From Armatimonadota bacterium (GTDB lineage: Bacteria; Armatimonadota; UBA5829; DTLH01), in assembly GCA_039680575.1 (NCBI GenBank), contig JBDKSP010000043.1, positions 1 through 33,088 on the forward strand: 33,088 nt of DNA, in the 5' to 3' direction. Under the pieces are notes generated by a model. It was not told the DNA's origin. It made no database searches and was given only the letters and a program-made list of their open reading frames with translations. Numbering within the stretch: the first letter of the stretch is position 1; the number at the start of each line of letters is the position of its first letter. Both the position numbers and the translations under genes were made by a program. Of the stretch, positions 22,613 to 33,088 are shown piece by piece.

Positions 22613-24148
22613 TCAAGCCTTTTCTGCTTTAAAGACCACTTTGTAGGTTTTGTCCTTCTCTATCTTATTTATGTCGGGCAGGATGAGAAAATCATCCGCT
22701 ATCACAGGATTAAGCCCCTGTCCTTCCAGTATCTTTATGTTCTTTAGCCTCTCCGGGAAGATAGCCGAGGGTGGACGTTTGCAGGAACTGTCTTTTATCC
22801 CTTTGACCTCGAAGGTGTATACTCCATCTTTCTCTGTCAGACTCTGTTCCCAGTACAGGTTCCGTGTCACAAGCCTTGCATCCCACGCGGGGTCACCGTA
22901 GAGCACGAATATATCGCGGTCCACAATCAGCTTTATTATCCACATTACGTCCGGATTCACCTCGGAGAATCCCAGGTCACTGGCTATTTTATCAGCTGAT
23001 GTTGTTCTATATTGCTTGATCTCATAGGCGTTCGCACCCGGCATCCTATTCTCCAACTTGCTTATCAGCAGTTGTTTGCTCAGATACCAAGACTCCACCA
23101 AGTTGAACCTGCCGGGTTGACACACGAAGTAGTAGTAAGTTCCCCATCCAGAGAATCCTTGATCTGTCAACGAAAGGTATGCCGCCATCTGGTTTACACC
23201 ACAAGAGCCCATATATGCAAGCGCCATTGACTGCTTGTTCTTGATGTGACCTATCAGGCAGTTGCCGGGAGCCAGGTATACCTTTGGATTGGGGGAGTTG
23301 ACGGCATATATATTCTGATTAGTATCCATCCCATATAAAACGCCGTTTTTGCATCTGAACTCTCCTGCGTTATATTTGTAGCCTATCAGCCAGTTATCCT
23401 CACTGGAGTGTCCGGAGGTGACGAACATGTCCGGCTGGCCGTCGTTCAGCCCATCCACCAACTCTTTTGCCAGGTCGTCAGGGCAGGATACTGCTTTTAC
23501 CACACCATCTTTGCCCTTTACCTCTGAGCAGTTCTTCTTAGACTCGTTATAGCGAGTCACTTCTTCCAGGTTTTCCACAGGTATGGTGTAAGCGGCGGAG
23601 AGGGCTTTATGGACTACCAAAGGCTCGGAGCAGGATGCTATTCTTAATGCGTCACGCACTGAATAACCCGTCAATATCCCGCTGAAGGTGTCCATGTAGA
23701 TGTCATCATCAAGCTTTCTGGACATTCTCAGGACATCCAGCACATACTGCTCATTTGCCTCTTCTGGTTTAGCTATAAAGCAGGTGTATCTGGGCATCCT
23801 TTTCGATAATTCGTCTTTAACCGACGTCACCTGGCCTGTGTATACCAATATTTCGGCTGAATACTTGTAAGAAATGGCATGCACCACCTTGCTCCACTCA
23901 GCATCTTTATAGGTGGAGTCTGATACCACTACCACATATCCACCATCTAGCTTTACCGGACGTATCTCTACTTTATTTACTTTATCTACTGCTTTAATAT
24001 CCTGTGGAAGGTCAAGTGAGAGCACTCCACCTCCTATTGTCACGGCAGGATATACCTCTACAGGCTGCGTGTCTTGTGGGTTTGCAATACCTGCTACTGT
24101 GAATGCCGCTAAAGCTGGTACTATGACAAAGAATATTCCGGTTCTCAT
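22613..24148 (-). CDS. Secreted protein, putative clan CD (C25/gingipain-like) cysteine peptidase fold
   Basis: Signal peptide from MRTGIFF (ATG 24148); FVTSGH, YLAPGNCLIG and VLYGDP in clan CD order. Confidence 0.55.
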   Translation of the reverse strand: MRTGIFFVIVPALAAFTVAGIANPQDTQPVEVYPAVTIGGGVLSLDLPQDIKAVDKVNKVEIRPVKLDGGYVVVVSDSTYKDAEWSKVVHAISYKYSAEILVYTGQVTSVKDELSKRMPRYTCFIAKPEEANEQYVLDVLRMSRKLDDDIYMDTFSGILTGYSVRDALRIASCSEPLVVHKALSAAYTIPVENLEEVTRYNESKKNCSEVKGKDGVVKAVSCPDDLAKELVDGLNDGQPDMFVTSGHSSEDNWLIGYKYNAGEFRCKNGVLYGMDTNQNIYAVNSPNPKVYLAPGNCLIGHIKNKQSMALAYMGSCGVNQMAAYLSLTDQGFSGWGTYYYFVCQPGRFNLVESWYLSKQLLISKLENRMPGANAYEIKQYRTTSADKIASDLGFSEVNPDVMWIIKLIVDRDIFVLYGDPAWDARLVTRNLYWEQSLTEKDGVYTFEVKGIKDSSCKRPPSAIFPERLKNIKILEGQGLNPVIADDFLILPDINKIEKDKTYKVVFKAEKA

Positions 24149-24179
24149 CCTAATTATTCTCCAAACCAATATAATTAAG

Positions 24180-25772
24180 TTACTCATTAATCAACCTCAC
24201 TTTATAATCAGCATATATCACAACCTTCCAACTATAGCCTGCATCAAGCACTCCGATGATTTCACTCTCTGGATGCTCCATCTTATCTTTGTCTGGCTGG
24301 TGATATGTGAATATCTCTTGTTCAGTTCCAGGCCTTCGATACTCACTGCGGTCATCTGAAGTATATTGATTCATCTCTTTCGTGTAACAACCTCCTAGTG
24401 GAAATCTACCATCATGTTCATTTGCATACATGAGTAGAGCATATGCAATATGCTCAGCATTAGATAGTATCAGCACCTTCTCGTCTTCTTCGTTCAGTGG
24501 AGCATCGGCTGTCAATTTTTCTAATGGAGTTGCGGGACGAGATGCAAGCTCTGCCATATAAACGCAGTTATCTCGTATATAAGCAATTTTTTTCGAATCC
24601 ACTGACCATGTAGGGCTGCTGCTACCTGAATCCAAAGATATACACATTCTGTCATACTTGTGAGATGCAGGAGTTATAAGCCAAAGCATATTAATTGATC
24701 CAATTCGGCCATCCGGATCATTAAAAGCCACTGCATTTCGCCGATATAAAAGCATTTTGCTATTTGGAGACCAGCCAAGTGCTACAGAATCATTTTGTGA
24801 TGATGCTATGGTTTTGCCGGTTGACCTAGATGCTACATCGAAAAAGAGCGTGCGATCTTTTGCAAGTGGTTCGAAACAATAAGGTGCTACTAGTTTTGGA
24901 TCACTGCCATCCTTGGCTCTAGTTTTCTTCACAACAAAAAACATGTCGTCAGATGATTGCATGTAGTCAGGTTTGTAATTTTTCGTTATGACATCATCAG
25001 GTTTTCCGTCAGTGTAGATCTCTCTTAGCTCAGATGTTTCATTGAGTTCAAATGATTTCGGATCTTCCTGTGTTGTCTCACAAAGCAACCCTTTATTCAC
25101 ACTTGTCCAGCCTATAAGTTTGATTGGTCCTTCGTTTTGTATATAGACTGTCTGCATAGTGTTGGCATCAAGATCAAAAATTAGCACTCCTGTTTGAAAC
25201 ACATCAAGATCATCATTAAACCAATGTCCTGCTGCCGCAACTTTATGATTGTCCCGGCTCCAGGTTATGTAGCTTAACAAAAGCTCCTTTGGACGTTTGA
25301 TGGATGCCTTGACATCTCCTGTAATAGTTAGCACTAACAAGTAATATTCACAGGGCTTCTGTGAATCACTGGGATAATCCAAGATAGCATCGACTGCCAC
25401 TAGTCTACTATCAGGAGACCATACAAAATCTGCAATATACCAATGTTCCTCATGATTCTGCTGCAATTCATTCCATGTCATTGGTTCTTGAAGCAACACA
25501 TGAGGTTGTCCACCAATGGACTTTACAACTAGTAATCCAGAGCATCCGTCAGGTTTATCTGCTTTGTATGCAACATACTTTCCATTGGGTGAAATGCAGG
25601 GCTTATTTGCAGATCCATCTGATTTGAGCGTTAATTGTCTAGTATTCGCAATTTCCACCATCTGATCGCCAACTATCATCTTTGTTACCGGCATTGGATC
25701 TGGCACACTGGGTGTGAAAGCGCAGCACAATTTACTTGTAATAATGAAAAATAAGATTAATATCTTCCACAT
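24180..25772 (-). CDS. Secreted TolB/PD40-like beta-propeller with a C-terminal DUF1559-like module
   Basis: PCISPNGKYVAY, WSPDSRLVA, WSRDNHKVA, WSPNSKMLLY, PTWSVDSKKIAY; LSNAEHIAYALLMYANEHDGRFP..VIYADYKV. Confidence 0.7.
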   Translation of the reverse strand: MWKILILFFIITSKLCCAFTPSVPDPMPVTKMIVGDQMVEIANTRQLTLKSDGSANKPCISPNGKYVAYKADKPDGCSGLLVVKSIGGQPHVLLQEPMTWNELQQNHEEHWYIADFVWSPDSRLVAVDAILDYPSDSQKPCEYYLLVLTITGDVKASIKRPKELLLSYITWSRDNHKVAAAGHWFNDDLDVFQTGVLIFDLDANTMQTVYIQNEGPIKLIGWTSVNKGLLCETTQEDPKSFELNETSELREIYTDGKPDDVITKNYKPDYMQSSDDMFFVVKKTRAKDGSDPKLVAPYCFEPLAKDRTLFFDVASRSTGKTIASSQNDSVALGWSPNSKMLLYRRNAVAFNDPDGRIGSINMLWLITPASHKYDRMCISLDSGSSSPTWSVDSKKIAYIRDNCVYMAELASRPATPLEKLTADAPLNEEDEKVLILSNAEHIAYALLMYANEHDGRFPLGGCYTKEMNQYTSDDRSEYRRPGTEQEIFTYHQPDKDKMEHPESEIIGVLDAGYSWKVVIYADYKVRLINE

Positions 25773-25821
25773 TATAAACTCCTTAAGGTTGATGTCTCGC
25801 GGATTTTGTAAAATATTCTAA

Positions 25822-25852
25822 AGGGGGATGGGTTGGTGGTATTCATCCCCCT
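25822..25852. other. Intergenic hairpin between rhs and the propeller gene
   Basis: AGGGGGATG / CATCCCCCT 9-bp stem. Confidence 0.4.
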
Positions 25853-25984
25853 AGCACTAATGCTGTATTGCCTGGCATTTATACTTTATTACTATGCACT
25901 AAATAAGAATCTTAATGGTTAATATCTTTCTGGAATACAACCAAGCTGCAAAGTAACAACTTCCAGGGCAAATACATCAATGAG

Positions 25985-28900
25985 CTAATTCCCCATACAT
26001 GCATGCGTTATATCCTCTGCTTTCATTTCTTCATAGATATAAGGATATGGATCGGTTTGCTTGCCCCAAGTCCTATGGCAATAATGATCGCAGGTCCATA
26101 TTCCATCTTGTATGGCCTTTGCTCTATCTGGATAATCGATTTTGTATTGATTCCACCATCCAGCGGCTTGAACTTCCGCATCAGTAATAAACAGCTTTTG
26201 CTTAAACCTGCAATAATGTACTGCCTCATGAATAAGGGTGCTAAGTTCAAGTCCGTTACTTTTAACAATTATAGCATCACGACTCGGGTCAGTAAGCCCA
26301 GCTGGATTATTCTTAGCGTCTAATATTTGATTTGTATCTACCTCAATAAGGGGAGGTTGCCCGTTATCCTTGAACGCCATTTTCATACAAGCCGTAAAAC
26401 CATTGTGTGTACCACCGTATTTTGTTAATGCTGCTATGCAGGTTGCGTTGTTATTAAGTATATCAGATGCTTTTTTTATTAATTTTGGCAATGTCCCACA
26501 ACTTGCAGCACCATTTCCCTTAATGTATAAACCTGTTGGGTCAGTCCAAATTATTGGACTACTACCAGAGTATATGTAATAGTTATTACCATCTTTTGCT
26601 GGGTCAGGTTGAGTAAACCTGCCTGTACTCGGATCATAATACCTTACCCCAAGCTGCAGGAGGTTCAGTGTCGGCTCCTGGTAATGGGTGTAGTATCCCA
26701 ACTTTCCAACATACTGATAAGGATTATCGGCAGTAGTCCCTGATGTATGAGTAACATTCCCCCAGGCATCGTAGCTGTAGGTATCTGTAGTGACACCATT
26801 TTCATCCGTTAAGGCTATGGTGCTTCCAAGCCCGTCGAAGTGATAGGTCCTGCTGTACTGGTAAACTCCACTAACGTACTTCTCTCTACTTATCAATGCA
26901 CCAGAAGGTTCCCTGGTATTCATATAAGCAGTAGTGCCTGTAGCCTCATATACCACTGCTGGGATAGATGCCGTAGGATCATAGACGAAGTAGTAGGCAC
27001 TTCCGCTCTTGGTTATCAGCTTCACTCTGTTCCTGCTATTATTATAGAAGAACCTGGTGTTAGTGTCGCTTGTGCCTGCTGAAAGAGTGGGATTGCTTGT
27101 GCAGGTAACAATCTCTGTATTCATACCTATCTGCTTGCCTTCTCTGTCATAGTGATAGGTATATCTCTTGGCACTGCTGTTGCCCATAGGAACAGTCATA
27201 CTTGTCTTCTGTCCCTGCAGTCCCCAGGTATAGGTTATGGAGCCGTATCCCGCAGGCAGTGCTGGTGTATAACTTATGAGCCTTCCCTGTCCATCATAGC
27301 TGTAGCTCGATGTTACACTCTGAGTATCTATGACCTCCGTCACTGTAGCAACTCTATCTGTCGGGATAACAGAATCATCATAGGTATAGCTTACAATGCT
27401 GCCGTCGGGATCACTTGCAGGAATTGCTATAGGCAAGGCAAATGTGCCAAGATAGTTATAGTCTATCTTCACTACCCTGTCCAGATAATCATACTCATAG
27501 GCTGCTATCTTGCCGTCTCCATCTTTGACTGCGGCAAGCCTTCCATACTGGTCATACAGATACTCCTCAGAGCCAAGTGTGGCTTCCATACCCTGAGGGT
27601 AGTAGTTTATCTTATCCACCCTTCCAAGATCGTCATACTCGTAGTTTATGACGGCTGTGTCGGTGGAGTTCTTCCTTGTAGTGATATTGACTAGCCTTCC
27701 AAACACACCGCTGTAGTCATACTCTACAAGAGGAGTCTGCTCTGACTGACCTGTTACATCAGCCCACTGCTTTATCATCGTCCCCTTGGTGTTATAACCG
27801 TAGTGGACTGCATTTCCCTCTTCATCTGTTACGGATGTAAGGTAGCAGCAGCCTCCGTAGTCATTGACTCTGGTCTTCCTTGTGCTTTCACCTGTGACAA
27901 GTGGATATGTTGTAGTAGTAGACCTGCCTTTCCAGTCGTAGTCGTAGTTGGTCCTTCTATCGTGCTCATCCTCACTCCACATAAGCTGACCCAGTGCATC
28001 ATAGCATGACTCAGTAGTCTTGCCCTCACAGGTAGCCGTGGTAGTAAGTGTTCCTCCTAAATAACTATAGGAGTATGTTGTCACCTGATCTTTGTTCGTC
28101 CCTTGTGTGGCTACACCGTATACTGTCGATGTATGAAGCATCCCCTTATGAGTATCAGGAGTGGTATAGTAGGTGTAAGACCCAGTCTTTACCAACTGGC
28201 TGTCTACCTCGTGCCAGACCTCTGCCGTGCTTCCATCTGCATTTACCACATACTTTGCGGTCTTTCCTTTATAATCCTTTTCTATGGTTGTAAAAGACGT
28301 CATCACACCATCTAATACCTTGTAATTATTAGCTGTGCTAAAACTGGTGCTGTTTATGGTGAGAGTCGCCTGTCTTAACATCCCGTTTCCTGCAACTCCT
28401 CCTGATATTACCTCATCATAAGGGGCGGAATCAGGACTGGTTGTCACATCATACTCTAGATCAGGGTCATAGTAGTCGTATGTAGTGGTCTTTTCTCTTC
28501 TTTTGGTGAGATCATTTTCATAATCTATCGAGACTGCACTTGCGATATTGCCGTAGTTCCAGTTTCCCGGGGTAGTCATATTTCTGTTGTACACTGTAGT
28601 ATGCAGCGGTACAAGCTGGAAGTTCTCATATACCAGAGCTACTTTTTTGTAGATAAAGGAGTTATTCCCCTGGGCGTCTCTATAGTACCAGTGTTCAACA
28701 ATCTTATCAGCCCAGTCACTGTCCCAGCCGGGATAATCCACAGATCCGGTAGATGCACACTGCCGGATGGTGGTCCTGCCATAATCAGCTATATCATCAT
28801 CATCGATATCAACAGTGTCATAGCTGTATTTGGTCTGGGAGTATACCTGCGGCGTATAAAACTGCGGATACTCACTTGGATGCGCCGCTACATAATCAGG

Positions 28901-29863
28901 ATCATCCATCACTCTTACATACTGCACTTTGGCAACATCGCCTGAAAAGTCATATGTCACCTTGGTCTTGATATGGTTGTTGCCGGTGACAGAGTCTATA
29001 AGACAGCCATTGTATGTATACGTAGTTACCGAAGGGTCTTCCGGGGTCTGTGAAGTGGTATCGACTATGGATACCTGTGTCGGCCACAACCCACCTTCTA
29101 TCAGCATATGAGCATTGCCATCAGGGTATGTGACGGATGAAAGCATCCCACTGGAGTCATATCCGTAACTATAGGTGCTGCCGTCCGGCAGTTCGACTGA
29201 TGTTGGCATACCATCCGGTATGGTATTCTGGCTGTCCCTATCGAGGGTATAAGTAGCAACTTTTCCCTGCGGATCGGTTATAGTCTCGGGCAGATGATAC
29301 TTGGCAACAGTCGACGAATCCCAAACCCTGGTATACGTCTTCTGGTCCAGATGAGAAAACGTCATCTGTTTACCGTTAGGCTCGGTTATGGTAGCTGTTG
29401 TTATCACTCCACCCACCAGATTGGTAGGCTGCATAACAAGCCCAGGTACCGTGTCAGATACCCACTGCTGGGATATGTCGCTTGTATTAGACGGTCTGAA
29501 CGTACATGCACCGTTTGCCATGTTCAGAGTGGCTTTGGTGTTACTTTCGATGTTGAGCCCTGAGACACCCTCCTGCTCAACATTCGCCCTTCTCTGGTTG
29601 GCAGATATAGGGAAACCTGGAATGCTAAAAGACGGGGTTGCCGTCCCTTTTGTTGCATCTACCACTATGGGTGATTCACTACTACCACCATTGCAACTGC
29701 TACAACCAGTTACTTTATCGGGTTCACTGCTTATTTTATCATTGCAGCACAAAGGGCAGAATGGATACTCCCAAAAGTACGGATATGCAAAGCAGCTTTT
29801 AAGCCCTGTTGAGAAAAGCACGACTGTTGCTGCTGCAGCGAGTGCTATCTTACGTAGTTTCAT
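25985..29863 (-). CDS. Secreted Rhs/YD-repeat protein with Rhs core and a 180-aa C-terminal HExxH tip
   Basis: Signal peptide; YD repeats; YHFDGLGST, YSYDAWGN, RYYDPSTGRFTQPDP..WTDPTGL; LIHEAVH in the tip; AGGAGG RBS. Confidence 0.92.
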   Translation of the reverse strand: MKLRKIALAAAATVVLFSTGLKSCFAYPYFWEYPFCPLCCNDKISSEPDKVTGCSSCNGGSSESPIVVDATKGTATPSFSIPGFPISANQRRANVEQEGVSGLNIESNTKATLNMANGACTFRPSNTSDISQQWVSDTVPGLVMQPTNLVGGVITTATITEPNGKQMTFSHLDQKTYTRVWDSSTVAKYHLPETITDPQGKVATYTLDRDSQNTIPDGMPTSVELPDGSTYSYGYDSSGMLSSVTYPDGNAHMLIEGGLWPTQVSIVDTTSQTPEDPSVTTYTYNGCLIDSVTGNNHIKTKVTYDFSGDVAKVQYVRVMDDPDYVAAHPSEYPQFYTPQVYSQTKYSYDTVDIDDDDIADYGRTTIRQCASTGSVDYPGWDSDWADKIVEHWYYRDAQGNNSFIYKKVALVYENFQLVPLHTTVYNRNMTTPGNWNYGNIASAVSIDYENDLTKRREKTTTYDYYDPDLEYDVTTSPDSAPYDEVISGGVAGNGMLRQATLTINSTSFSTANNYKVLDGVMTSFTTIEKDYKGKTAKYVVNADGSTAEVWHEVDSQLVKTGSYTYYTTPDTHKGMLHTSTVYGVATQGTNKDQVTTYSYSYLGGTLTTTATCEGKTTESCYDALGQLMWSEDEHDRRTNYDYDWKGRSTTTTYPLVTGESTRKTRVNDYGGCCYLTSVTDEEGNAVHYGYNTKGTMIKQWADVTGQSEQTPLVEYDYSGVFGRLVNITTRKNSTDTAVINYEYDDLGRVDKINYYPQGMEATLGSEEYLYDQYGRLAAVKDGDGKIAAYEYDYLDRVVKIDYNYLGTFALPIAIPASDPDGSIVSYTYDDSVIPTDRVATVTEVIDTQSVTSSYSYDGQGRLISYTPALPAGYGSITYTWGLQGQKTSMTVPMGNSSAKRYTYHYDREGKQIGMNTEIVTCTSNPTLSAGTSDTNTRFFYNNSRNRVKLITKSGSAYYFVYDPTASIPAVVYEATGTTAYMNTREPSGALISREKYVSGVYQYSRTYHFDGLGSTIALTDENGVTTDTYSYDAWGNVTHTSGTTADNPYQYVGKLGYYTHYQEPTLNLLQLGVRYYDPSTGRFTQPDPAKDGNNYYIYSGSSPIIWTDPTGLYIKGNGAASCGTLPKLIKKASDILNNNATCIAALTKYGGTHNGFTACMKMAFKDNGQPPLIEVDTNQILDAKNNPAGLTDPSRDAIIVKSNGLELSTLIHEAVHYCRFKQKLFITDAEVQAAGWWNQYKIDYPDRAKAIQDGIWTCDHYCHRTWGKQTDPYPYIYEEMKAEDITHACMGN

Positions 29864-29881
29864 GTTTTTGAACCTCCTTTC

Positions 29882-32566
29882 CTACTGTCCCGACGCCGTC
29901 GAGAGCAAGCCTCTGGAGTCGTAGGTATATGTTCTACTGGTAACATCGTTCTTCTTTACCTCAAGCAGGTTGCCTGCTCCCGGTGTATAGGGATTGACGG
30001 CGTAGCGGTAGGTGTATGTATCGCTGCCGCTGGTCCGTTCGGTCAGCATGTCCACGATGCTGTAGTCCCAGGCTCCACCGTTGTACTTTGAAAACAGGTT
30101 GCCTACCCAGTCATAGCTGTAGTTTGTGCTTGCTGCCGATGTGAGTCTGTTGACGACATCGTAGGTGTAGACGGTCGAGAGATTGGCCTCGTCGTTGTCC
30201 AGCCACGTCTTGACCCTGTTGCCTACTCCGTCGAGGTTATAGTTGACCTGCTTGAACATCGAGAACTGGCTGCTGACCAACCTCTGATGCTCTACTTCCT
30301 TCAGTCTGTATCTCTCGTCATAGGTGTAGATGGTCCTGGTCCCGTTGGGATTTACGACTGTCCTGTTACCGGTTGAGTCATAGGTATATGCCGTCACTAC
30401 TCCTATTAACAGTGCATCTGCGTTTGTGTCCTGTGCTTCATTACCTGCCATATCCATTCCGGTTATGACGATTGTCGCCAGACCTACAGGATCAGTTGAC
30501 AATACAGTGTAGGTGCAGGTGTAGTTGAGCCCGTTATGACTAAGATTCGCGGCGCTGTTTCCATTCACTGTCACAGCAGGGTTTTCCTTAAGCTCCTCTG
30601 ATGCTGTGAATGTGATGGTTGTTGTCTGGCGTGAAGAATCGCCATACTTTATTGTAGTCGGATTTGCTGCGATATCTGTAAATGCAGGCGCCGTCCTGTC
30701 CGCAGGGATGATTAGGGTGAGGTTGGGCAAATTGGAATAGACTAAATACATCCGCCCCGGCTCAAGATATGCACTTCCATTACTCCCAGTAGGGTCTACA
30801 TAGTACGTGCTTCCTGTTTGGGCAACATAATATGTCCAATTGTCATCAATCCATCCTTCAGTAATTGCATCCTGAACTGACAACGTATCCATCCCATTAG
30901 TAACCTTTATATCGGTCCAAAGAACCTTATGATTGAGAGGATGGCCTATCCAAGTAGCACCTGCCTGATATTCAATATAACTAGAAAGATTTATGGCCAT
31001 ATCAGTGATTAGTCCGTTGCTACCTCTTAATCCATCAGGATAACCTGCATAATTCACCTGACACTGCTGAGTGACAGAAGCCTTATATCCATCTCCAAGC
31101 AACATCCCGCCAAAGCCCTCCGGATAATCTTCGTCATATATTACAAGACCATTCGTCAGGGAGTTCCAGCGATAAAGACAACCATTCGGGTTATATGGAA
31201 ACACTGCTGCCGGGTCAGAATTGAGCGGGGCACAAGACAATGAAATCCAGTTGGTTATACTACTGCCGTAATATAGTGTAAAGCTTACGGATTCTCCTGT
31301 CGTTACTTCGGTTATATCCGATGCACTGCGTGTAAGAATGAGCCTTTCTAAATTACCTGATCCATTCTCAAAACAAGAGCTTATTCCTGTTACGACCAGG
31401 TGGTCTCCTACAACAACTCCAGCGGGAGGTGTACACATCACCTTGATGCCTGTATTGTAGCTACCATCCTCCAAAGCTGACCCGTCATCTATGTAGAGGT
31501 AGTCTAAGCCGATAGCAGCTACATTGCCATAGGTCCTGATAAGCATGCCAATGTTGTTCCAAGCATAGACTTCCGTTATCCCCCTCTGTCCGCCACATCC
31601 GGGATCACAGTATTCGAAGTCTCCACCACCAACTGTCCGGTTGTTCATTCCAAGAGGAATAATAGTCCCGGTACCATCGATGGTTACTGTGGATGCTGTT
31701 ATGCACCTTTCATCATTTGAGTCAGTATCGATGACACCGACTATGTCTACCATATCGCCAACTGCTACTGCTGCAGTCGAATTAACCTTTATACCTGAGA
31801 ACCTGTCCTCGGACTCAATGTAAAAGTTGCCCGTAAAAGTCGCCGTGACTACTGCATTATTGACGATTACATCTGCATCATCCGGCATAAGTTTACAGAT
31901 TCCAACTGTTGTCCCGTAAATAGTTGAACAATCTTCCCATCCGAGTGGAGATCTGTTACAGGCATTATCCTCAGCAACAAGGTCAAAATAGTACATCCCT
32001 TCTCCGGCAGGAGGGACAAAGTTGAATGAACCAGGTGCCGATGATGCAATTGAAGCATAGTAGGTCCAAGTACCCTCTGTCCCCAATTTATACCAAAGCT
32101 CCACATGATGAACTCCGCTGCCATTATCGTAGCAACCATTGTAGTTCAGAGTAATTGTGCTGGAACTGTATGTATATCCATTCAATATACAGAGATCTGG
32201 ATTGGTAGTATCTAGCAGGATAGTGTCAGAGTAAGATGCAGATACCTCTCCAAGGTTGTTCTTGTACTGCGCGTAGACAGTCTTAGTCCCATCTCCTGAT
32301 GTAAGAATCCACCCAGACTTACTGGAAGAATAGGCTTCCCACTCGCTCCAGATGGAGTTGTTGTTACTAAAACGCATATGGGTGATTATTTCATTTGGAT
32401 CAGACGCAGATAATGGTGTAAGGTTAACTGATGCGGTATTTGTATATGGATCATTATTCTTTATACATATGGTCCCGGTTAGTGTTGCTGCACAGGGGTT
32501 TGCTGCAATTATAAAAATCACAAAAGTAAAAAGCGGTAATATGCATCGTCCAATAATTCTAAACAA
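29882..32566 (-). CDS. Secreted multidomain protein (Ig-like and OB-fold-like domains) ending in about 170 aa of YD repeats
   Basis: TTG start with AAAGGAG RBS; signal peptide; Ig-like GDGTKTVYAQY..LDTTNP and DMAGN; OB-like FYIESEDRFSGIKV..VGDMV; C-terminal YTYDSTGNR..YTYDSRGLL. Confidence 0.85.
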   Translation of the reverse strand: MFRIIGRCILPLFTFVIFIIAANPCAATLTGTICIKNNDPYTNTASVNLTPLSASDPNEIITHMRFSNNNSIWSEWEAYSSSKSGWILTSGDGTKTVYAQYKNNLGEVSASYSDTILLDTTNPDLCILNGYTYSSSTITLNYNGCYDNGSGVHHVELWYKLGTEGTWTYYASIASSAPGSFNFVPPAGEGMYYFDLVAEDNACNRSPLGWEDCSTIYGTTVGICKLMPDDADVIVNNAVVTATFTGNFYIESEDRFSGIKVNSTAAVAVGDMVDIVGVIDTDSNDERCITASTVTIDGTGTIIPLGMNNRTVGGGDFEYCDPGCGGQRGITEVYAWNNIGMLIRTYGNVAAIGLDYLYIDDGSALEDGSYNTGIKVMCTPPAGVVVGDHLVVTGISSCFENGSGNLERLILTRSASDITEVTTGESVSFTLYYGSSITNWISLSCAPLNSDPAAVFPYNPNGCLYRWNSLTNGLVIYDEDYPEGFGGMLLGDGYKASVTQQCQVNYAGYPDGLRGSNGLITDMAINLSSYIEYQAGATWIGHPLNHKVLWTDIKVTNGMDTLSVQDAITEGWIDDNWTYYVAQTGSTYYVDPTGSNGSAYLEPGRMYLVYSNLPNLTLIIPADRTAPAFTDIAANPTTIKYGDSSRQTTTITFTASEELKENPAVTVNGNSAANLSHNGLNYTCTYTVLSTDPVGLATIVITGMDMAGNEAQDTNADALLIGVVTAYTYDSTGNRTVVNPNGTRTIYTYDERYRLKEVEHQRLVSSQFSMFKQVNYNLDGVGNRVKTWLDNDEANLSTVYTYDVVNRLTSAASTNYSYDWVGNLFSKYNGGAWDYSIVDMLTERTSGSDTYTYRYAVNPYTPGAGNLLEVKKNDVTSRTYTYDSRGLLSTASGQ

Positions 32567-33088
32567 GGTAATCTCCTTTCTATATGCTACACTTGAAGAA
32601 ATGTTTGTTGATGTAATAGTTCAGGAAGATGCAATGAGGAGGAGGGCGAGAAGTGCCCACATCAGGCTGCCTCTGCTTTTGATGAGTGTTACTGTAACTA
32701 AAAGATATATTGCGCATCCTTACGCCCCTTTCCCGGAAATCTCCGGAGGATATGCCCCAAGTACTGCAAGGGCTGGTGATAACTCATCAGTTATGGCAGG
32801 GATGACGAAGTAGAGGGTAATCAAGTGGCGCCAGTAACACTTGGACCGGTCTTACACATCGTATTTCCCATCTTGGTACTACAACTTGCATAAGCCGATA
32901 CTACTGGCTCTTGAAAAGAATATCAGTCAGGCTGTCAGATGTCAAATTATATTAGCGGGAAATCAGGAGCATCGTTTTTAGACAGTGAGCTTGTATATGA
33001 TTATCGGGTGTATAGGATTGGTCTGGAAAAATGGCGGGATTGTTAGTATTGATACGAGAAAAAGGATGATTACGGGACTTCTATGCAG

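Follow-up and report, generated by a model that had tools for sequence, protein, structure and literature searches.

Rhs/YD toxins are known from Photorhabdus Rhs1 (7PQ5), Pseudomonas RhsA (7Q97), Vibrio RhsP and the Sec-exported Rhs proteins of the WapA type, and the system described here has the same YD repeats, two-aspartate core, variable cargo and orphan cassettes. As described in excerpts of PMC8636562, the Rhs1 barrel is a single chain that forms one continuous strip and ends ~80 residues ahead of the cleavage site. How cargo escapes from the Rhs cage is stated there to be unresolved, with lateral opening as one hypothesis. The same excerpts describe TcB as an N-terminal extension of the barrel that also closes it (PMC8636562). 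Bacterial teneurin-like proteins are presented, in excerpts of PMC13018210, as secreted toxins that have a YD shell and adhesion domains of variable type.

We analyzed a stretch of 33,088 nucleotides from an Armatimonadota bacterium (contig JBDKSP010000043.1; hereafter the window). Judged from sequence, two adjacent genes in it probably encode a two-gene, Sec-exported Rhs polymorphic toxin whose two-chain shell would be built via internal insertion. Compared with Rhs1, an internal portion of the strip is encoded in another gene. Unlike T6SS-delivered Rhs proteins, the window Rhs had no PAAR, VgrG or VIRN domain at its N-terminus in family searches, and a hydrophobic leader, a predicted signal peptide, is found there instead. 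The TcB-TcC (BC) shell is likewise a YD shell made from two gene products. However, Tc chains meet at one seam, whereas the window partner would fill an internal gap, with two seams and a linker as a bridge; neither window gene had a match to a TcA/TcB-type domain, and the partner, which maps to an internal gap, does not resemble a TcB that joins end to end. In teneurin-like proteins the adhesion domains precede the shell within a single chain, while those of the window system lie on a separate chain that we propose is attached via a wall panel.

In pili, donor-strand complementation completes an Ig fold in trans with one strand. The comparison is an analogy only, as ~16 strands are proposed here to enter a toxin cage. 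A search of full-text literature retrieved no internally split Rhs; an earlier mention may exist, for example in subscription journals.

Results

Organization of the gene pair

Both genes lie on the reverse strand, with the Rhs gene downstream of its partner:

29882..32566, reverse strand: partner (putative donor) gene, 894 aa, TTG start, predicted Sec signal peptide
31919..32485, reverse strand: beta-rich N-terminal region of the donor, aa 28-216, putatively Ig/Fn3-like
30692..31918, reverse strand: middle region of the donor, aa 217-625, shared with donor P0244
30419..30691, reverse strand: Ig-like domain directly before the block, aa 626-716, present in 4/7 donors including P0244, P0398 and P0401
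29885..30403, reverse strand: putatively donated YD block, partner aa 722-894 (173 residues), RHS_repeat match, terminates at the stop codon
25985..29863, reverse strand: gap-type Rhs gene, 1292 aa, predicted Sec signal peptide, RBS at 29873-29878
27059..27112, reverse strand: linker, Rhs aa 918-935, in place of the missing block, pLDDT <50 in the Rhs-alone model
26528..26773, reverse strand: Rhs-associated core with D1087 and D1108 (PxxxxDPxG), TIGR03696 over aa 1031-1112, 58.9 bits (cut-off 32.5)
25988..26527, reverse strand: C-terminal cargo, 180 aa, HExxH at aa 1212-1216, predicted zincin-like metallopeptidase

The initial annotation had described two intact genes, each with its own RBS, separated by 18 nt, and had located the linker and the partner tail. 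Its coordinates for both were exact, and we found AAAGGAG 6 nt upstream of the partner TTG and AGGAGG within the 18-nt spacing. In the database, the partner gene (P0122, 831 aa) is called from a later ATG.

Donor residues ~92-226 recur upstream of full-length Rhs genes, with 42-46% identity to the upstream genes at L137, L139 and L140. The middle region consists of a domain that recurs in many proteins of the same genome, which we take to be OB-like and which would suit an Armatimonadota host, and an unannotated domain; there was no Pfam or NCBIfam match in this region, and the best Atlas score of 0.76 is a lead only. By sequence, the YD block that follows the Ig-like domain comprises ~8 hairpins.

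The Rhs protein contains a YD/RHS repeat array (PF05593, E 2.5e-22, plus TIGR01643). Its cargo is unlike that of P0003, P0004, P0005 and P0242 (described below), as in toxins with hypervariable C-terminal cargo, and the top Atlas matches of the cargo were zinc-peptidase clusters (0.87-0.90, a lead only). No ORF of ≥80 aa, such as an immunity gene, was found within 212 nt after the Rhs stop codon; the next gene encodes a 530-aa beta-propeller-like protein. This is one of two predicted secreted proteins encoded downstream of Rhs (22613-25772), the other being a 524-aa protein without a family match. The 524-aa gene may belong to the system because a paralogue lies downstream of a sister Rhs gene.

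The most hydrophobic segment fell within the first 45 residues in each of the seven donors and in each of the four gap-type Rhs proteins that are full-length. These observations, which come from a hydrophobicity scan and inspection alone, are consistent with Sec leaders on both groups. The N-terminal 60 aa of the window Rhs (window 29680-29785) and of its relatives also contain cysteine-rich, CxxC-type motifs after the leader, and their shell region has a CC pair that hardly varies (alignment A1).

A group of Rhs proteins with an internal gap

According to the initial annotation, the Rhs protein lacks an internal YD block. We collected relatives with Rhs aa 560-1120 as the query and used the best 120 of 946 matches. 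The distance between pre-gap and post-gap profile matches was then measured across all proteins and loci gathered in the analysis, of which 28 rows passed the score cut. This anchor spacing was bimodal, at 52-60 residues in 8 rows and 188-243 residues in 20 rows with none between 60 and 188, which bears out the absence of the block relative to full-length proteins. The 8 gap rows represent five distinct proteins, and the 20 full-length rows include at least two duplicates. Besides the window protein (P0001), the gap proteins are P0003 (85% identical), P0004 (44%), P0005 (42%) and P0242 from genome G007. All five have a linker without repeats; these linkers resemble one another in length but are unrelated in sequence. 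A 19-row tree of the segment after the gap placed the gap proteins on one side of a 100/100 branch.

The window Rhs is a complete ORF with an RBS and a leader, and four of the five gap proteins are full-length with leaders, unlike an orphan cassette or pseudogene. With its intact core aspartates and varying cargo, the gap-type Rhs appears to be maintained. We also considered whether extra repeats elsewhere in the chain compensate for the gap. This was rejected: apart from P0005, the gap proteins have a shorter distance from start to core than their full-length relatives do, and on inspection the extra N-terminal length of P0005 is not YD-like.

A family of proteins ending in the missing block

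We searched 1.84 billion representatives with the partner tail and used the best 150 of 5270 matches. Among the matches listed, three proteins (P0244, P0356 and P0362) contained it as a single C-terminal stretch. A profile built from these three and the window tail (best 120 of 2680 matches used) added P0395, P0398 and P0401, none of which had been used in its building. These three scored 138-142 bits, compared with 86 for the next row, and only seven distinct donors reached ≥138 bits across 486 proteins and 123 loci. An eighth donor, in G018, is interrupted by the contig end after the first strands of the block. Word-based searches had limited recall, and P0244 itself was not among the matches they listed.

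The tails of the seven donors are 36-54% identical to one another, and all seven proteins end 0-2 residues past the end of the profile, just before the stop codon. Their N-termini vary, with beta-helix, PKD, Ig-like and unannotated domains and total lengths of 346-1232 aa. The Ig/OB-like domains of the partner had been proposed to act as an exchangeable module; the term is apt only in an evolutionary sense, as the N-termini differ among the seven donors, but a single donor was found in this genome. In a 27-row tree (4 rows omitted for short coverage), the donor blocks formed one group with moderate support (87/88).

The two pieces tile a full-length Rhs

As a reference for tiling we used a 489-state profile built from 13 full-length Rhs proteins only. 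The gap proteins (5/5) aligned from states 1-3 to 118-124 and again from 308-312 to 486, and the donors (7/7) aligned from states 134-139 to 303-306. By eye, the ~10 uncovered states match a strand still present in the gap proteins, KQIGMNTE. In every donor the boundaries agree with those of the gap to within ~1 strand at both ends. The partner tail thus falls in the gap and not on a retained part of the Rhs, which is the outcome of a check that the initial annotation had suggested. Model states ~125-307 are missing from the Rhs chain, so it does not encode the one-chain shell of Rhs toxins. Approximately 175 residues remain between the gap and DPTG, and by likeness to Rhs1 the missing panel would lie within the last turn of the barrel.

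Full-length Rhs loci lack the block upstream

For a control we examined 16 regions, of which 11 had a long full-length Rhs gene and 10 of those had upstream sequence. The block profile had no match in the two nearest upstream ORFs of any of the 10. Therefore, in the loci seen, either the Rhs contains the block or the upstream partner ends with it, and never both. Together with the tiling, this reciprocal distribution supports the donation in trans that had been proposed from the window, a reading that is likewise derived from sequence.

In five of the 10 full-length loci, the adjacent upstream gene is closely coupled, apparently secreted and homologous to donor N-termini. At a sister locus in the genome of the window (contig C85), a 979-aa beta-helix protein that is 49% identical to the P0244 N-terminus is separated by 25 nt from the full-length Rhs P0008. 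The simplest history that we infer is that the block was transferred once, from an Rhs to the end of an accessory gene, within a pre-existing two-gene operon.

The C85 locus (L039:2815-17728) comprises an integrase, a leader shared with the window, the 979-aa secreted protein, P0008 and an ankyrin-repeat-like protein; the contig also encodes a 528-aa paralogue of the window gene at 22613-24187. At L039, L137, L139, L140 and L141, the upstream secreted beta-helix/Ig partners carry one of two shared C-terminal domains. These partners of full-length Rhs proteins may bind Rhs by another route.

Linkage of donor and gap-type genes

In sequencing run X1, one 5584-nt contig covers 27002-32585 with 0 differences and flat depth; X1 is probably the source run and so is not independent of the sample. 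Because this contig is uninterrupted and identical, we find no misassembly at the linker, the intergenic gap or the start of the tail, junctions for which a read check had been suggested. In run X2, from a different study, a 2712-nt contig is collinear from the donor Ig domain through the tail to the Rhs start, with ~95% identity in the two listed pieces. A 1727-nt X2 contig crosses the linker and, if collinear, has no room for the block.

P0244 and P0004 both come from JGI and both have a longest contig of 11393, and P0401 and P0005 both come from Logan and both lie on a contig of 8304. We infer that each of these pairs shares a contig. A search for homologous pairs thus yielded, in addition to the window, P0244/P0004, P0401/P0005 and the X2 contig. 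No donor was found for P0003, nor a gap-type mate for P0356, P0362, P0395 or P0398 (contigs of 2.9-6.1 kb). Among the candidates scored in 53 genomes of the class and 401 of the phylum there was no second intact pair, so the system is rare among the genomes searched; these genomes yielded orphan gap-type fragments (G007, G034) and the contig-end donor of G018. DNA collections gave no further pairs (one irrelevant locus in metagenomes, none in viral contigs), and scans of genome contigs returned either nothing or 10 loci without a complete donor.

P0242 is an N-terminally truncated chimeric orphan without a leader, and no donor was found either upstream of it or elsewhere in G007 (99% complete). 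The chimeric orphan in G007 (L032:11941-14601) joins a piece of full-length-type block to a mid-portion of a gap-type Rhs, has proline-rich cargo and adjoins a transposase-like ORF. In the genome of the window, contig C18 (L038:240-1212) holds an orphan fragment of the gap type; it begins at the linker, is 85% identical over 111 aa and breaks off inside the core. A 202-aa ORF behind it is a possible immunity gene.

The composition of the block differs from its surroundings: its GC3 is 0.67-0.77, above the rest of either gene and compared with 0.22-0.53 in the remainder of its own. In run X2 it also appears better conserved than the Rhs pieces. Both features suggest that the partner tail is possibly the product of a recent exchange.

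Structure models

An AlphaFold model of the Rhs alone (19 sequences) had a pLDDT of 65.7 and a pTM of 0.54, with no full-length control for these values. The linker was disordered and the core was of low confidence, both with pLDDT <50. Against solved structures the model matched Rhs, teneurin and Tc shells with TM scores of 0.2-0.33, a level at which it would fit an open shell as well as a closed one, and its Z scores to Rhs shells were 9-11 (for example 8h8a, Z 10.6, rmsd 4.5, 557 aligned). The tail alone was modeled with low confidence (pLDDT 55) as an open single-layer sheet. Its best matches were OspA-like sheets (Z <7), which reflects a common arrangement only.

Discussion

The tiling and distribution lead us to regard it as quite likely that the donor adds ~16 strands in trans, shuts the shell and tethers adhesin-like domains to it. 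Both chains would be exported, and the donor tail would pair with two Rhs strands, one that ends near aa 917 and one that starts at aa 936, and the linker would span the panel. The shell would then close around the autocleaved cargo, with the variable N-terminal domains of the donor (beta-helix, PKD/Ig and others) held on its side as adhesion or anchoring modules. If true, this would be a new way of building an Rhs cage, in which ~16 strands of the mid-wall come from a second secreted protein. It would also provide a natural example, on a large scale, of one chain completing the fold of another in trans, and variable adhesion domains would be coupled to variable cargo as separate genes.

More tentatively, and with considerable doubt, we suggest that the donated block may be a removable side hatch, a reading that is compatible with strand addition in trans. 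The cargo would be sealed only with the partner panel in place; engagement of the adhesin-like domains by a target or surface would pull the panel out, and the autocleaved toxin would exit sideways. A separable panel would make lateral opening testable. If this idea is correct, the system would amount to an Rhs container with two components that is gated by its target, and would offer a natural handle on the question of cargo exit.

An unlikely alternative is that the gap-type Rhs needs no partner to fold and forms a shell that is shorter or has a window, and that the tail is a separate domain, for self-association or docking on the outside, which is adjacent by descent. Some loss of strands is tolerated, because excerpts of bioRxiv 2024.02.26.582050 describe a solved Rhs core in which four strands are replaced by a loop; however, the loss here is ~4x larger. 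The existence of a gap protein without a donor (P0242) and the resemblance of the Rhs-alone model to Rhs shells (Z 9-11) agree with self-sufficiency. The low pLDDT of linker and core in that same model (<50) points the other way, though weakly, and a self-sufficient shell would leave unexplained why the donor boundaries fit the gap in 7/7 cases and why the stop position is fixed across tails of 36-54% identity.

We consider it improbable that the tail is a transient intermolecular chaperone or template for folding and cargo loading, which then departs or is separated by cleavage of the donor, so that the mature particle need not carry the donor domains. The same tiling and linkage would fit such a role. 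However, loss of the panel would presumably open the wall by half a turn and expose the cargo, and the size and variety of the adhesin-like N-termini are easier to explain if these domains remain on the particle. Rhs fragments are described as remaining non-covalently bound after autocleavage (excerpts of PMC8636562), which is compatible with a chaperone role.

That the arrangement is an artefact or dead relic, through misassembly, recent scrambling, or DNA, RNA or protein splicing that restores one chain, is highly improbable: Rhs loci do recombine often, as the orphan fragment at the linker (C18) and the G007 chimera illustrate, and the GC3 of the tail differs from the remainder of its gene, but the X1 contig is identical and uninterrupted with no joint listed, a collinear relative exists in X2, the gap proteins number five, with identities as low as ~42%, and the donors seven, repeat-mediated DNA rearrangement was rejected because no long repeats flank the linker and tail, linker cysteines are missing in 2/5 gap proteins, and intein-like splicing was likewise considered and rejected.

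Leader and flanking DNA

Upstream of the partner gene is a non-coding leader (32623-32961) that shares 87% identity with its counterpart at the unsplit sister Rhs locus of C85 and could be a regulatory RNA or a shared control region. It includes one promoter-like feature:

32917..32945, reverse strand: promoter-like site TTGACA-17-TATTCT, inside the ~340-nt leader

Because a promoter scan yielded fewer sites than shuffled sequences, it is conservation at the sister locus that speaks for this site. There were no matches to Rfam families in 24000-33088. No RNA data set was listed as carrying the region; two short RNA contigs match it but may be DNA. Beyond the leader, a ~125-nt repeat at 32963-33088 also occurs at the ends of at least eight other contigs, has ~10x the read depth and is probably the end of a mobile element.
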